Below are positions 2,166 through 36,309 of a stretch of DNA of 64,000 nt, in pieces. The stretch comes from Cetorhinus maximus (taxonomy: Eukaryota). Under the pieces are notes generated by a model that worked only from the letters and a program-made list of their open reading frames with translations, was not told where the DNA came from and made no database searches. Where the stretch lies: assembly GCF_964194155.1 (NCBI RefSeq), contig NC_135903.1, positions 31,620,001 through 31,684,000 on the forward strand. Direction: 5' to 3'. The position numbers and the translations under genes are program-made. Numbering within the stretch: position 1 is the first letter of the stretch; each line of letters opens with the position of its first letter.

Positions 2166-2260
2166 GTATCTTGTCTGAGTACCATCTAGTATTTAATACC
2201 CCAAATCCTCACACACAATCTGCGATCATCACGACAATCCCAGTCAAGACTGAGACTTAC

Positions 2261-2367
2261 TTCAACATCTTCTAACATCGGCAGCTTCAAAGGATGAGCC
2301 TTTATCTTAATTCGACACTCTCCTATTTCAACCTCGTGGTCTTCCATTTCCAGTATCTTACTAGCAA
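2261..2367 (-). CDS. IFI35: IFI35 coding exon (107 nt, NID domain); later exons lie left of the window
   Basis: Encodes VASKILEMEDHEVEIGECRIKIKAHPLKLPMLEDVE, flanked by ttcgcag and gtaagt. NMI/IFI35 NID-like sequence; synteny with RPL27 and RUNDC1. Confidence 0.88.
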
Positions 2368-2742
2368 CTGCGAAAGTAAAAAAAAAAATCAAATGAAAAA
2401 GTTCTTCAGGTATGTAAATGTTAACCAGTTTTAAGTTTCCATAATATTTACAGATCATTCCAGATAATGAACAAAGCTAATACTTTGTACAGACTTATTG
2501 GTTTGTGAACCTTAGGACCAACAAAGGAAAGATTGTGTTAACTTTGGAAGGATTCACACTACAGCCATCGCCCCCCCCACCCCCCCCACCCCCCACCCCC
2601 CACCCCCCCACCCCCCAGCCGAGACACATCTTCCAGATATTTTGCAAATGATCACCGTATTTCTTAGTGGCATCTAGTATTGGAATGTAAAAGTAAGGCA
2701 GTATTCACTGTACTGGCAGGCTGCTGAGTTTGGAGACTTTTA

Positions 2743-24869: not shown

Positions 24870-25534
24870 AACATAGAATCATAGAAAGTTCACAGCACAG
24901 AAAGAGTCCACTTGTTCCATTGTGTCTACGCTGGGTGAAAAATGAGCCACCCAGCCTAATCCCACTTTCCAGCATTTGGTCCGTAGCCCTGCAGATTACA
25001 GCACTTCAGGTGCATATCCAGACACCTTTTAAATGAGTTGAGGGTTTCTGCCTTTATTACTCTCAGACAGTGAGTTCCAGACCCCTACAACCCACTGGGT
25101 GATTTCCTCATCTCCCCTCTAATCCTTCTACCAATCACTTTAAATCTATGCCCCCTAGTCACTGACCTCTCTGCTAAAGTAAATAGGCCCCTGCCATCCA
25201 CTCTGTCCAGGTCCCTCACAGTTTTGTACATCTCAATCAAATCTCCCCTCAGCCTCCTTGGTTCCAAGGAGAACAACCCCAGCCTATCCAATCTTTCCTC
25301 ATAGCTGCAATTTTCCAGTCCTGGCAACATCCTCGTAAATCTCCCCTGTACCCTCTCTAATGCAGTTACATCCTTTCTGTAAGGAGGTGACCAGAACTGC
25401 ACAGAGTAGTTGTGGCCTAACTAATATTTTATATAGTTCCAGAGTAACCTCCCTGCTCTCATATTCTAAACCTCAGCTAATAAATTAAAGGATTCCATAC
25501 GCCTTCTTAACCACCTTGCCAACCTGACCTGCTA
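24870..25534 (-). mobile_element. CR1 LINE 3' part (host of the R2 insertion; continues at 30149)
   Basis: ORF 25085-25402 reads QFWSPPYRKDVTALERVQGRFTRMLPG...LGLFSLE.RRLRGDLIE. The reading frame AGQVGKVVKKAYG starts abruptly at 25534. Confidence 0.9.
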
Positions 25535-26273
25535 AGTAAAAGATTGATATAAAATATCTAATGCATATTTTGAGAGTTTATGTGTCTCAGCTGCAAAGCC
25601 TTGATTGGTAAAAGATACCTCATTCCCAGTGAAACACAGGGACGGGAGATATTAAAATGTAAAACCGGTGAAAATTATAAAATCTTTGTTGCCACAGGAC
25701 TAACCTAAGCGAGAACTGGGTACGTGAACTAGGGAAAAATTTGTTCAAATTGACAAGCAGATAAGGATCCCTCATCATTTCAAGTGTGATGTTATCAAAT
25801 GGAAATGATAAAATGAAATAAACAGTTTTATTACTATAACAGATAAAAGTTAAAATGTAAAATCTAAAAATAAAGCATTTACAAATAAAAGGAAAAACAT
25901 AAAATATAAAAAGGATAGGCATGTGAAATCAATCGTCCATAAAAATTGGTACAATTTGTATCGCTAAAGCATCGCTAGTCGAGGGACTTGACTTGAAGTG
26001 ATCTACCTGTAAAAATCTCATTAAGGAATGATTTCGTTCATACCATTTACCTCAGGAACCGAGTACAAAACCAAAAAAATTCACATTCCGGCTACCGGTT
26101 AAGGATTTGATTTTGTCAGCCAAATGCTGATATTTCTTGATCTTCTCCTCCCAGGCCTTATCCAATGAGTTATTGGTCCTCAAATCTAATTGTAACATCA
26201 ACAACTGACACTTACAAAAGATTATATTGAGTTTGAAGAGTGATCCGTCATCAGTCCTGATATAAGTCTCCAA

Positions 26274-27715
26274 ATTTTTAAAAATTAATTTACGGAATGT
26301 GGGCTTCACTGGCTAGGCTAGCATTTACTGCCCGTATTTATTTGCCCTTGAGAGGGTAGTGGTGAGCTGCCTTCTTGAACCGCTGCAGTCCATGTGGGGA
26401 ATTTACAACCACAGTGCTGCTAAGGAGGGAGTTCCAGGATTTTGACCCAGCCACAGTGAAGGAACGGTGATATATTTCCAGGTAGGGTTGGTGAGTGGCT
26501 TGGAGGAGAACTTCCAGATGGTGATGTTCCCATGTATCTGCTGTCCTTGTCCTTCTAGATGGTAGCAGTCGTGGGTTTCGAAGGTGCTGTGTAAGAAGCC
26601 TTGGTGAGTTTCTGCAGTGCGTCTTGTAGATGGCACACACTGCTGCAACTGTTCATTAGGAGGGAGTGAATGTTTGTCGAAGGAGTGCCAATCAAGTGGA
26701 CTGCTTTGTCCTGGACAGTGTCAAGCTTCTTGAGTGTTGGAGCGGCACTCATCCAGGCAAGTGGGGAGTATTCCATCACACTCCTGACTTGTGTCTTGTA
26801 GATGGTGGACAGGCTTTGGGGAGTCTGAGTTACTCACTGCAGGATTCCTAGCCTCTGACCTGCTCTTGTAGCCACAGTATTTAATTGGCTAGTCCAGTTC
26901 AGTTTCTAGTAAATGGTAACTCCCAGGATGTTGATAGTGGGGGATTCAGCGATGGCGGTACCATTGGAAAGTCAAACAGTGATAGTTAAATTCTCTCCTG
27001 TTGGAGATGGTCATTGCCTGGCACTTGTGTGGCATGAATGTTACTTGCCACTTGTCAGCCCAAGCCTGGATATTGTCCAGGTCTTGCTGCATTTGCACAT
27101 GGACTGCTTCAGTATCTGAGGAGTCACGAATGGTGTTGAACATTGTGCAATCATCAGCGAACATCTCCACTTCTGACCTTATGATGGAAGGAAGGTCATT
27201 GATGAAGCAGCTGAAGGTGGTTGGACCGAGGACACGACCCTGAGGGACTCCTGCAGTGATGTCCTGGAGCTGGGATGATTGACCTCCAACAGCCACAACT
27301 ATCTTTCTTTGTGCTAGGTATGACTCCAACCAGTGGAGAGTCACCACTCCCCACCCCGATTTCCATTGGCTCCAGTTTTGTTAGGGCTCCTTAATGCTAC
27401 AATGAGTCAATTGCTGCCTTGATGTCGAGGGCAGTCACTCTCACCTCAGGAGTTCAGCCCTTTTGCCCATGTTTGAACCAAGGCTGTAATGAGGTCAGGA
27501 GCTGAGCGTCCCTGGCAGAACCCAAACTGGGCGACAGTGAGCAGGTACAAAAACAAAAATAGCAGGAAAAACTCAGCAGGTCTGACAGCATCTGTTATAC
27601 ATATATGTGGAATACAGTTAACGTTTCGAGTCCGTATGACTCTTCATCAGAACAGTGAGCAGGTTATGGTTAAGCAAGTGCCGCTTGATAGCACTGTTGA
27701 TTACCCCGTTCATCA
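26274..27715 (-). mobile_element. 5'-truncated APE-type LINE nested in the R2 element
   Basis: ORF 26946-27347 reads GVPQGRVLGP..MFADDCT; same family as 16104-19303. It splits the R2 sequence between KHG and LETYIR. Confidence 0.9.
27547..27651 (-). mobile_element. Short Penelope pLTR-derived insertion with an intact hammerhead core and a 13-bp TSD
   Basis: TSD ACAGTGAGCAGGT at 27534-27546 and 27652-27664. Minus strand GTT-CTGATGA-A-GAGTC-ATACG-GACTC-GAAA-CGT-T-AAC. Confidence 0.8.
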
Positions 27716-30008
27716 CTGGATACCCATGTTTAAGCACTTGGACTTTGAGGAGATTGAGGATTTTATTATGCCGATGAATCCTTGCGTTTTTAATATGTAA
27801 ACAGCTACCGGAGATTTGGGAGATTGTCTCATTTAATACATTGCATCCTCTCCATTTCGTAATATTTCCAGGTCTACCGAATGATAAAAAAGAAACCTAG
27901 TTGGATAGGCATTTCCCCCGAGTAGGACTTTAATAAAAACGGACTGTTTAAAATAGTTTAAAAGTAGCCAGTGATTCGAGATATTATTATAAAAACAAGA
28001 AATGCCAATGCCTTAATAGTTAAGTGCAGTCCACCTCTTAAATACATATTCACACCAATTAGGATACATTTCACTATTTTGACTGCTGGGTGTCATTGGG
28101 CATGAGGCACAATTCAACCTGGGGCGCTTTAGCTGAAACGTCTTAAATTATATTAAGGTTGTAAATTTGACTCATTTTTGAACGAAATCCACGCCACCGT
28201 GTAAAAAGGAAGCCTTCACGGTGATTTTATCAGGTCCTGGTGCGGGATCTTTTCTTAAATTGATCAATAATTGTTTTAATCCCATCTTCCCCAATCAAAT
28301 TAAATAATTGAGAAGTAGCGGCCATTCTAGAGTACTTGGAAAATTTACCTAAATGCACCTTGTTATTAGTCTAAGACAATCTCTGTATGAAATGCTCTTC
28401 CAAATCACCTATATTCAAAGGGCTCGAAACTTGATTAGAGCCACCCATCAACCCGTCTAGCCAAGCCTTTCTTGTTAGCTTTTTACAGAGTTGAGCTTCT
28501 TTAAATTTGTTTCTTTTTAGCAAATCCCTTTCTGAATCCGGTATTTTTAAAGGGTGGATTTTTATTTACACAATTCACATGATTTATTGTATCCAATTAA
28601 CTTTACTAGCTTTTGAGCCTATATTAGTTACCTTGCCGAGTATCTGACCCACCAAACAACTCATTTAATTATTATTGGTGCCCTTTTTGTCAATCAACTT
28701 AATTAACGTTAAGGCGTCAAATTTACCCTATTTATTTGGTCCTGTCCCCAAACTGCTACATTATCCCTATTTACATTCGGTTCCTCCTCAGATCTTTGGG
28801 GAATCGTTACATTAACCTCGTCATCGGATGAAAGTGTAAAACCTTCAAGTGAATTAACGTTAACATTTATATTCTCAGAGGCATTTGGATTATTTCTAAA
28901 TTTAGTCATTTGAAATTTGTTTGTTAGTTTTGGTTACTAATATCTTAGCTAGCACAACATTAATATTTTTATGGCCAACATGTTCTTTCTCTAAATAAAG
29001 GAGAAACACCCCTTTGGACCAAATAGAACTTTTGTTTGCAACTGGCCGAGATCGGTCTGAGGCAGCTAGCGATTCTTTTTTGATTTCGTAGTTCTGGGTG
29101 CACACGGATGCTGTGCTAAGAGCTCTTTGTCTTAAAGTTCTTCGCACACGAAGGATAATTATAGATTATATTGACATTGACCTCTCGTGTGCCTCCATTG
29201 CATTTTGAATATTAGTATGTGATGGGATGGTATTCGCCAGTCCTCTGACATCGACTACGAATAACCAAAATCTTAGAACTGTTATGATTATTCCTATAAT
29301 GTCTCCTAAAATTAGTTATAGAGTTTAAAATTACATCACAAATTTAGAATTAAATTGATTACAGGGATAAATTACCTTAATATCATTATATAAGGTATAT
29401 GTTGAACCTATTTAAAGCAATAGTTCTAGTGCCTTATTGATTCACAGGGGTGTCACTGATATTGATATTAGTAGGAGGTTTCAAATTTGTATTATAAAAA
29501 GTTAAACGTTGATAAAATCTCAGTTGTAGGTAACAGCCCAGCCTCTGGGGATGTTCTCTGATGTATCACACTTCTGTTCTCTTGAGCTGCCTCAATCTTC
29601 GCATCCATATTAAGTAATAATTGATTGATATCTTCCAAGCCTGAAGTCTCATTTAATAGCAAAATAGAACCAGTAAATGGTTTTATGAGATCAGCCTCAT
29701 CAGTTTGTGTATGTGAGGATTTGATTAATGTCATGGTGTTAGCAGACGTACCCACTGCACCCCGGTCAAGGCAACAACAGCATTTAACAAAATTGTTAGT
29801 CAGGGAATGTCTAATCAAAGCGGGGATGTTTTTCAACTGGTTAACATCCCAACCGGGAGGGACAAGTTGATCAGGACCATTGTTCATTTAATTTTCGTGA
29901 ACCCTAATGATCCTCCACCTGCGAAGAGAAACGGTTTATCCAAACCGCCCGTCACCTGCCAGCTGCATTCGCCATGGTGCCAGGATCCAGCAAACCGAGA
30001 GGGAGCGG

Positions 30009-30146
30009 GAATCAAGGGAAAAAAATTCCTAGATTAGCCACAACGATTGATTGTCATTGATCGCGACACAACATTACCAGGGGCACCATGTGGATGTTTG
30101 ACCCGCTACGGGTTAGAAATTATAACACCCATAGCCATAGGTCCCA
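30009..30146 (-). ncRNA. Degenerate HDV-like self-cleaving ribozyme at the R2 5' end
   Basis: Elements in order: GGGAC (P1), J1/2 hairpin GCTATGGGT/ACCCGTAGC, GGGTCAA (P2), ACA-TCCACAT-GGT (P3/L3), GCCCCT (P1'), GG (P1.1), P4 stem, GGCTAA (J4/2, putative catalytic C at 30037), TTGATTC (P2'). Confidence 0.68.
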
Positions 30147-30148
30147 AG

Positions 30149-30260
30149 TCAGGGATCTGTGGACATTCACTCCAAGGTCCCTCACTTTCTCCACATCTCT
30201 CATTATCCTCCCATTTATTGTCTCTGCCTTGCTTGACCTCCCAAATTCTTGATTACCAAC
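30149..30260 (-). mobile_element. CR1 LINE, upstream continuation of the 24870-25534 copy
   Basis: Minus strand reads RDLGVNVHRSL, which precedes (KV)AGQV.KVVKKAYG in CR1 ORF2. Confidence 0.8.
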
Positions 30261-30991
30261 ATCCTTTCAAAAAGTGAGTTAACCAGTTTTTGTTTGGAGG
30301 TATTGATCACTGGAAAGTTTTTTCCCACTCGCCATCACACTAATTTTCTTCCGAAGTGTATTGATTCCTTTATGGGATACCGTTCTACAAACTATCACAT
30401 GACCCCTTGTCTAACAGTTAAGTGGTTATCCTCCTTGTGCAAACCTGGAGGGTTTCAGATTATTCAACTGCAGGAGACAAAGCTGAGACTGGCCTGATCA
30501 CTAGCCAGTCTGAACACATTTATTGTTTGGCTCACTGGAACTTCAATCAAACATGCTGCTTCCTAAACAGAATCATAGATTGTCGATACAAAATTAGTGG
30601 TTAACTCTTTAAAAAAAAACCCTTCTTTCTATCATTTCCTCCTCCAAATATTTCCAAGCAGGATATTGGATATTTTTTAAAATTCCCAGACTTGGCACCA
30701 TTGTGCTAATTTACAGGTACAGGGCCTTCTAGTTTATCTTTATTCCTCAGCCTAAATATAAAAAGCAAAATCCTGCTAACAAGGCTGTTTCGGCTATATT
30801 TTGTCAGATTAAACACAATTTCAAATTTAAATGGATCAAGTGTGGAAAAACAGGATATGTCTTTTCAACGTGCAAGTTTATACTATACAAAAGGACAATA
30901 CTGAACACTTCAAAGCAACAAAATTCTATTATTCAAGCAAAGTAAATTTATTCATATACTACACCAATGCTCAAAACATTTTAATTGAATA

Positions 30992-30997
30992 TTTATT
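30992..30997 (-). terminator. RPL27: RPL27 polyadenylation signal AATAAA
   Basis: tttatt on the plus strand, 17 nt after the stop codon; short 3'UTR typical of ribosomal protein mRNAs. Confidence 0.8.
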
Positions 30998-31013
30998 TAT
31001 ACTGGAATACAAT

Positions 31014-31062
31014 TTAGAATCGGAGCTTCTGGAAAAACCATTTATTCTTTCCTGTCTTGTAC
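31014..31062 (-). CDS. RPL27: 60S ribosomal protein L27, last coding exon (49 nt)
   Basis: Encodes (R)YKTGKNKWFFQKLRF*; ctgcag acceptor. Confidence 0.98.
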
Positions 31063-31958
31063 CTGCAGAAAAACAAAATAGTGTATATATATAAAATTTA
31101 ACATTAGAAATTCCAATTTTATTTTTACAATATCAAGCACAATCTATAAATGATCAGTAGCTGTTGTGGAAGGAGAGGTAAGGTAACAGAGTTCAAGGTG
31201 CACTCTTAAGAATATCAGTTAGGGACCTGTCAAATAAAGGTCAAGTGGGCTTGCCTTCAGATGAATGTTCAACGTTAATCAGAAGACATAATGGTGCTTT
31301 GGAGGTCTGAACCCTTGGTGAAAGTTATCGCAGTTTGTTCTTAACACTCATCCATTGATGAGATATCATGGCAAGGCAGAAAAAATTGAAATTTGGGAAG
31401 ATTACATTTAAAAATTTATTTCACAGACCATGGATCAGAGGTAAATATAGCATCTACTATTCTGTTTGCACTATTTATCAGCTGGTTTTGGAAATCATTT
31501 ATTTGAGCAGCCAGAATTTGGTTAAAACTAAAATGTCAACAATCAACATTTGAGGAATGATCTATTACACAATGTTATGGAGCATGGTAATTTAAACATA
31601 AGGGACCTGCAAAGCACACAAGACATTGCAGTCTACATTTTTGGGAAAGTAATTTACACAGCTGAGGTTAGAGTACCACTTTCTTACTGGCCTGCATATT
31701 TTTAATGTAACAACAATCTCTTAAAGATGTCACTTTGTTTAAAAAGAGATCAATGAGTGTATTCACTTCACAGCCATCTTGCTGGGCATGTACAACCCTT
31801 TCATTAGCAGAGTTAGTCTTAAAAGCAGTTTTGATCACTAACCTGCTGCCACCTTCAAAATACAGTGGGAAGCAAGTAAAATGAACAAGGCCCAAGTACA
31901 AAGTTCTATTAGTTTTATAAAAAGGTAAATATTATTTTTTAAAATGTTCCCCGTCTTA

Positions 31959-32171
<213 letters not shown>

Positions 32172-35746: not shown

Positions 35747-35975
35747 TCATCCTGCAACCGGTGCCACTGATCTAACCAGCAATTCATCTCATCTAGTGTG
35801 TGAGAGTGCTTCTCTTTGCTGTTTCTCAATTTGCTGATACAACTTTAAGTAAATGTAATTCATTGGCTGTGAAACACTTTGAGAAGGGAGCTGATATGAA
35901 TTACATTTCTGCCCTCCCACAGAAGCTGTCACTGATCTGAGTGCAATGCTGGATTCTGTAACGTGGGTTCCCCAG

Positions 35976-36309
35976 TCAGTGGAGCCTCACTGGGGGGGTC
36001 AGTGGAGCCTCACTGGGGGGGTCAGTGGAGCCTCACTGGGGGGGTCAGTGGGGCCTCACTGGGGGGGTCAGTGGGGCCTCACTGGGGGGGTCAGTGGGGC
36101 CTCACTGGGGGGGTCAGTGGGGCCTCACTGGGGGGGTCAGTGGGGCCTCACTGGGGGGGTCAGTGGAGCCTCACTGGGGGGGTCAGTGGAGCCTCACTGG
36201 GGGGGTCAGTGGAGCCTCACTGGGGGGGTCAGTGGAGCCTCACTGGGGGGGTCAGTGGAGCCTCACTGGGGGGGTCAGTGGAGCCTCACTGGGGGGGGGG
36301 GGGGGGGGG
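35976..36309 (+). repeat. 23-bp minisatellite, 14 units, ending in a G19 run, in RPL27 intron 1
   Basis: Unit TCAGTGG(A/G)GCCTCACTGGGGGGG. Confidence 0.95.

Follow-up and report, generated by a model that had tools for sequence, protein, structure and literature searches.

The window (the whole 64-kb stretch of DNA that was analyzed) carries a decayed R2 retrotransposon on its minus strand, located between RPL27 and an exon encoding an NMI/IFP35 domain. This element had been proposed, at 25535 to 30148, in a reading made from the sequence alone, and it was confirmed in this work: all of the domains listed at that time are present, in frameshifted form. The two neighbors named by this sequence-only reading were also recovered (RPL27, Pfam L27e, E 3e-12, and the NMI/IFP35-domain exon), and its statement that rRNA does not flank the element was borne out, since the number of Rfam families identified in the 64-kb window is zero and the window thus contains no rRNA. 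The features, all on the minus strand, are given below, where P0001 is the open 1,289-residue lineage-A R2 protein of locus L088, with Myb and C2H2 Pfam matches under curated cut-offs.

2189 to 2476, minus strand: exon with an NMI/IFP35 (NID) domain, opposite neighbor gene (Pfam NID, E 9e-7)
24890 to 25534, minus strand: CR1 target, downstream half, same CR1 copy as the upstream half; its first four bases are those found after the nick in 28S
25535 to 30148, minus strand: entire R2 insertion in its decayed state, nested LINE included (junctions aligned to those of other copies; empty-site joint 25534-30149)
25535 to 25928, minus strand: AT-rich 3' UTR (alignment with the 3' ends of sister copies)
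25929 to 26273, minus strand: restriction-like endonuclease domain, frameshifted, with a stop (tblastn to P0001 residues 1167-1278, E 3e-19)
26274 to 27715, minus strand: nested 5'-truncated CR1-group LINE of a very abundant family, a later insertion (Pfam RVT_1, E 8e-15)
27716 to 28213, minus strand: linker and CCHC zinc knuckle (tblastn to P0001 residues 1047-1164)
28214 to 28520, minus strand: start of the reverse transcriptase (RT) region, up to an internal deletion of about 1.3 kb (profile matches and translation)
28905 to 29340, minus strand: remnants of three zinc fingers, plus Myb domain (tblastn match to residues 176-321 of the intact P0001, E 9e-17)
29888 to 30148, minus strand: 5' UTR with a putative decayed HDV-like ribozyme core at about 30072-30096 (alignment with the intact 28S element and sister copies)
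30149 to 30330, minus strand: CR1 target, upstream half, from the C-terminal RT region of a CR1 LINE (flank shared with sister copies)
31016 to 32171, minus strand: RPL27, last two coding exons (Pfam Ribosomal_L27e; sequence)

The exact ends of the R2 insertion are fixed by its empty site, as position 25534 is joined directly to 30149 in paralogous CR1 repeats found in contigs (4/4 runs). The flanks of the window R2 are the two halves of a single CR1 reading frame, the lower end of the downstream half (24890) having been placed by eye. The R2 starts about 0.9 kb downstream of RPL27 in the same orientation, and the same insertion is present in a second species at about 95% identity. Judging by its nearest named proteins, the host is taken for a shark.

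Read along the minus strand, the element has its zinc-finger remnants at about 29340-29060, followed by the Myb domain (about 29020-28905), an early RT motif (28243-28229), the linker with the CCHC knuckle (about 28070-27720), and the restriction-like endonuclease (about 26276-25950). This copy has lost the RT core and thumb by deletion: profile matches end at column 497 and restart at 939, so that columns of about 498-938 (about 440 residues, with positions taken from the profile columns and a reading of the translation) are missing. Contig depth is about a million on the nested LINE versus about 16 on the R2 part. The loss of the RT core, the nested CR1-group LINE, and the CR1 halves at both flanks had been missed by the earlier reading.

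R2 lineages of the genome

A search of the genome with a 28S pattern gave 274 matches, 30 of which were examined; these comprised 22 intact rDNA units, 6 with an R2 3' end upstream, and 2 short dispersed pieces of 28S. Seventeen of 30 listed loci were 99.4-100% identical to the L088 element and had 28S sequence downstream. This active 28S lineage also has dozens of dispersed chromosomal copies with 72-99% identity, the old ones showing 0.47 stops per 100 codons and a 37-43% third-position difference from the present element. As a 28S-resident lineage also leaves dispersed copies, location outside rDNA alone is no evidence of life outside it. The clade to which the window copy belongs shares only about 35-50% protein identity with the intact 28S element of the genome.

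Copies of this clade were gathered by DNA and protein searches, the latter scoring 150 of 277 and 150 of 301 candidates, and 136 stretches were retrieved, covering most, though not all, of the chromosomal matches listed. About 25 copies were included in the tree and further ones were added from later searches, which refutes the idea of a rare one-off insertion. The assignment to R2 lineage A was upheld, as the copies nest among the vertebrate 28S R2s in trees whose taxa did not include NeSL, R4, and Hero sequences, and this counters a placement with another clade of restriction-like endonuclease elements. The support of the window clade was 0.986 in the first protein tree and 0.898 in the tree with more copies. 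It was found to be the sister of all other shark R2s (FastTree, support of the shark clade 1.0), its sister group being composed of the active element, a third local lineage, and proteins of Chiloscyllium punctatum and Scyliorhinus torazame, with turtle and coelacanth proteins as neighbors. An IQ-TREE tree, calculated without support values, had an identical topology. A core subclade that includes the window copy received a support of 0.988. The CCHC knuckle and the endonuclease are seen in the window copy and the RT core has been kept in sister copies (e.g., L192, C3, and L098), and a piece of a sister copy matched the solved R2 structures 9nl2, 9nl3, and 9dou with E values of 4e-23 to 2e-21.

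All members of the core subclade are dead, with 81 stops in 6,677 codons. Protein searches, which provide weak negatives, identified no intact relative above about 51% identity, and no subclade member was found in rDNA contigs by DNA and protein searches of the genome. Of the alternative suggestion of a shark R2 lineage that lives outside rDNA, the part that stands is that there are many copies outside rDNA; that the lineage lives there does not follow, because all copies are dead and the lineage is concentrated at one CR1 site. The shape of the tree (bushy or ladder-like) was dropped as an argument for life outside rDNA, as the DNA tree of the subclade is largely ladder-like too.

Recurrent insertion of the core subclade at one CR1 site

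Sixteen of the 21 resolved 3' junctions of the core subclade are at the same CR1 position, and none of these 21 copies has a 28S flank. Rather than being nonspecific, the lineage is thus focused on a single site. For two further subclade copies (the C1694 group and L261), the CR1 site is known from the 5' junction only. Of the remaining five resolved junctions, that of C16 is at a second CR1 site, that of L096 at a 28S-like octamer, and that of L099 in a different repeat, while the ends of L100 and C2 were left unassigned. Junctions were called by alignment and by eye. Excluded from the counts were copies without a recognizable 3' end, copies in rDNA arrays, duplicates of one insertion (C8/C365/C912/C1694/C3041, L205/L219, and L202/L208), three copies found only via the 28S pattern (L090, L092, and L093), and two with unclear ends (L186 and L265). 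A search with the junction pattern returned 11 matches; since its 4 subclade junctions were all previously known, the inventory of copies at the CR1 site seems nearly full.

At 10 of 10 empty CR1 sites, 24-29 of 50 positions agree with the 28S target, ungapped and in the same register. Among the 46 upstream positions, 20-25 agree, versus a mean of 11.4 in 2,876 background sites sharing the four downstream bases. The last 23 positions had been set by the search pattern; of the upstream 36, 12-17 agree. The CR1 site equals the 28S target at positions -25, -23, and -20, at five of the six bases that precede the nick, and at the four after it, and the R2 3' end adjoins the same four bases at CR1 as in 28S. 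The intact site is abundant in the genome, with 221 exact 26-mers and 1,248 exact 20-mers (controls, 0).

Other R2 lineages of the genome use this site far less, namely in 2 of 33 copies (p=1e-7 versus 16/21), and for basal members of the wider clade the value is 0 of 6 (p=0.002). The two copies concerned, L193 and L213, belong to 28S lineages and occupy the corresponding position of different CR1 subfamilies. A third copy of a 28S lineage, L172, shares the second CR1 site with the subclade copy C16. It may be asked whether timing alone accounts for this pattern, such that any shark R2 would have struck the site while the CR1 subfamily was young and abundant. Most insertions indeed fall in a single CR1 subfamily, whose flank tree is star-like. 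The copies have decayed to about the same degree as their flanks, which places their insertion near the burst of this subfamily, and the homologous site was struck by L193 and L213 of other lineages. However, among roughly age-matched copies of other lineages, a small sample, only 1 of 8 is at the CR1 site (p=0.003 versus 16/21), and that one is in another subfamily. Furthermore, the genome has 1,732 instances of a younger CR1 form that matches perfectly around the nick, and no young copies of the active lineage were found in it. Timing alone is therefore considered improbable.

The insertions at the CR1 site are independent events. In the 5'-truncated copies L101 and L223, the upstream CR1 half is joined straight to internal R2 sequence, and the 5' junctions of the subclade copies are all different. 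The R2 parts differ by 0.37 and the flanks by 0.17, with no correlation between the two (r=-0.02, 52 pairs), and occupied and empty CR1 flanks interleave in one star-like CR1 subfamily. These data bear on a hitch-hiking scenario, in which one R2 within an active CR1 formed a chimera that was copied by the CR1 machinery or by segmental duplication. The copies do have their 3' junctions in common, and one copy was amplified by duplication (C8, C365, C912, C1694, and C3041) and has been counted once. Yet truncated copies and uncorrelated distances largely refute such copying, as do the mixing of occupied with empty flanks and the differing 5' junctions, and it is regarded as very improbable.

The codon-position differences among subclade copies (0.30, 0.25, and 0.52 for positions 1, 2, and 3, compared to 0.17 for the flanks; 58 pairs of copies in the same CR1 subfamily) show purifying selection on the source elements. 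As differences at third positions exceed those at first and second, many functional sources must have contributed, and the comparison with the flanks indicates that these evolved much faster than host DNA. Source evolution amounts to about 0.5 substitutions per site, against only some tens of copies.

Residence and targeting of the source lineage

It is established that these copies are R2s, that they were inserted in the register of the 28S nick, repeatedly and independently at one CR1 site, from sources under purifying selection, and that other R2 lineages of the genome use this site much less. We consider it moderately probable that these copies, the remains of a lineage-A R2 that split CR1 elements at a 28S-like site, came from a now extinct lineage that resided in 28S and had an unusually strong, lineage-specific second target. 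The element RNA would have been released from the rRNA transcript by its own ribozyme, and the protein would have bound the CR1 site owing to its partial resemblance to both upstream motif and cut site. The bottom strand may then have been nicked and reverse transcription primed on the four shared downstream bases. Copies in rDNA would later have been purged by array turnover, leaving dispersed fossils alone, and the window copy would afterwards have lost its RT core and gained the second LINE. The small number of fossils together with the fast evolution of the sources suggests a high-turnover reservoir such as rDNA, in which R2 has been reported to turn over rapidly (PMC2718515). The 28S lineage, with its strongly diverged old copies, displays a similar pattern.

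Information on target recognition is available for R2Tg, whose RT6a loop and ZnF1 have been reported to read bases -25, -24, -23, -21, and -20, and whose off-targets agree with the target over 4-5 downstream bases and in the -19 to -25 region (PMC12222951). The CR1 site matches three of the five contacted bases (-25, -23, and -20). In the subclade, the ZnF1 helix pattern has been kept and the RT6a loop is unlike that of the active element; that this changed loop caused the preference for CR1 is a guess.

A true retargeting is possible but less likely. In this scenario, the subclade left rDNA and spread from CR1-resident copies as a site-specific parasite of another LINE, its self-contained ribozyme, freed of 28S sequence, releasing the RNA from read-through transcripts, for example downstream of RPL27. 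Compatible with it are the 16 of 21 3' junctions and the two copies placed by their 5' junction, the restriction of the preference to a single well-supported subclade, and the altered RT6a loop. Basal copies are not older as judged by stop density (0.80 versus 1.21 per 100 codons). Four or more lineage-A groups existed side by side, and changes of target have been proposed to result from competition for 28S (PMC5035012). On the other hand, about 0.5 substitutions per site for tens of copies would be hard to sustain from fixed dispersed copies, and the terminal bases of the copies outside CR1 resemble 28S, not CR1.

Unlike every other lineage in the genome, the subclade lacks 28S flanks or a clear 28S leader, and this also speaks for retargeting. 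The 28S leader match is 10 of 19 in the window copy and 9-12 of 19 in ten full-length core copies, both within background, while 12 of 13 full-length copies of the active lineage match at 14-19 of 19. Four core copies share a 5' end of their own, and the paired ribozyme strand has, by eye, seemingly been altered to match. The HDV-like ribozyme core aligns in decayed copies, and minimum free energy folding of these copies shows no pseudoknot or ribozyme. A 28S flank or tail of at least 17 bases was found in none of the 21 subclade copies versus 7 of 33 copies of other lineages (p=0.035; p=0.56 without the CR1 hits). Traces of 28S are seen in the wider clade, such as a leader match of 18/19 in the basal L291, an 11-base run in the core copy L107, and downstream 28S sequence at the ends of L210 (10 bases) and L096 (8 bases). 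The lack of 28S flank and leader has ordinary explanations: dilution by the CR1 hits, loss of the leader at partly matching sites, and internalized ribozyme stems. In any case, the leader becomes shorter when the target matches only in part, as in L193 (11/19), and element-owned ribozyme stems have been described in 28S-resident R2s (PMC3774820).

According to a 2026 review (PMC13580325), R2 elements retain the 28S site, become generalists, or relocate within rDNA, with specificity probably forming a continuum. The genome analyzed here offers a dated natural record of this continuum, with several R2 lineages and dozens of dispersed copies, and one of these lineages uses a near-cognate site in another LINE more than tenfold more. 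It shows a plausible route from an off-target hotspot to a new target, and the named target bases and protein loop bear on off-target rules in R2-based gene insertion. If retargeting were true, the element would have a fixed non-rDNA target, and no such R2 was found in the literature searched. In either case, a fossil R2 lineage is concentrated at a 28S-like CR1 site, a situation more structured than an off-target copy or a lineage living outside rDNA, the two options initially considered.

Comparison with known R2-type elements

In its architecture (three zinc fingers, Myb, RT, CCHC, and restriction-like endonuclease), the lineage resembles vertebrate lineage-A R2s (R2Tg, PDB 9dou/9nl3; PDB 9nl2), and it shares with vertebrate and shark lineage-A R2s a putative HDV-like ribozyme core, the nick position relative to the target, and the clade. 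The shark elements compared were those of C. punctatum (P0004) and S. torazame (P0003/P0006), along with the chondrichthyan R2s of PMC13188248. Unlike known shark R2s, the lineage forms a separate dead branch, with surviving copies mostly in a CR1 LINE and none in 28S.

In the open literature (Repbase, subscription papers, and the species tables of PMC13188248/Fell et al. 2025 being outside this scope), no R2 was found to be described as recurrently targeting CR1 or another transposon, and PMC4640811 mentions non-LTR elements targeting transposons in general terms. As at the CR1 site, partial 28S identity near the nick and at -19 to -25 has been reported for non-rDNA R2 and R1 insertions of Drosophila (PMC2718515) and for R2Tg off-targets in human cells (PMC12222951), whereas the accessible parts of both articles report no recurrent target inside another transposon.

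R8, inserted into 18S, and R9, inserted into another 28S site, are likewise elements of the R2 clade with an altered fixed target (PMC5035012), but their targets are within rDNA and proven by young copies, whereas that of the window subclade is a dispersed LINE, known from fossils only. Residence of R2-type elements outside rDNA has been described for R2NS-1_SMed, R2NS-1_CSi, and R2-homologous elements of Porifera (PMC5035012, PMC13188248). The 21 resolved subclade copies show neither the canonical 28S insertion of R2 nor unrelated flanks of the R2NS type: the flanks of the R2NS and Porifera elements are reported to be variable, whereas three quarters of the junctions of the window subclade are at one repeat position.

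Dispersed copies of the active 28S lineage

The active R2 element of C. maximus, which resides in the 28S rDNA, is also represented elsewhere in the genome. A full-length copy situated outside rDNA, L168 (G000:C10:18070180-18078700), shares 99% identity with this element, retains an open frame of 1,289 residues and carries a complete 28S-derived leader; L168 is a recent off-target insertion of the active 28S lineage. Further dispersed copies derived from this lineage (L169-L227 and L255-L294) form a graded series with identities of 72-99%. In the majority of them, the R2 3' end abuts the four bases located immediately 3' of the 28S nick, and some possess target duplications or 28S tails of 17-18 bases. 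Short internal R2 fragments that lack the 3' end were also found dispersed in the genome, with lengths of about 0.3-0.6 kb and 93-100% identity to the active element:

Internal R2 fragments without 3' end: L196, L200, L201, L206, L209, L260, L263, L267, L269, L282, L284, L294

Recurrent sites and genomic setting

A second recurrent R2 site lies within a CR1 endonuclease region, and its two occupants, namely, the core-subclade copy C16 (L041/L042) and L172, belong to two different R2 lineages. Two members of the wider clade that includes the window copy, L099 and L211, are located at an identical position within a third repeat. Dead R2 copies have also been multiplied in large duplicated blocks, at G000:C8:62.38-62.46 Mb and on C365, C912, C1694, and C3041, as well as at C3:8-9 Mb and C26:41.1 Mb. 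At L089 (G000:C236:411501-421500), a 28S unit bearing R2 adjoins a long run of telomere-like hexamers, and in the window itself, at 35975-36297, a 23-base unit is repeated 14 times in tandem with almost no variation.

R2 insertions in other species

The R2 insertion of the window is also present in a second species (organism B), at about 95% identity over window positions 25473-26368 and 29989-30191; being common to both species, it is therefore older than their split. One contig of organism B (window 29703-31061) begins in the last RPL27 exon, continues into the 5' part of R2 and contains about 0.7 kb of additional sequence. The run from which it originates is, at a guess, presumed to be RNA, and this contig is a possible candidate for a read-through transcript. 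In C. punctatum and S. torazame, the scaffolds on which the R2 fragments P0257, P0260, P0287, P0003, and P0006 have been annotated are 0.25-4.4 Mb long, a placement that hints at dispersed copies in other sharks.
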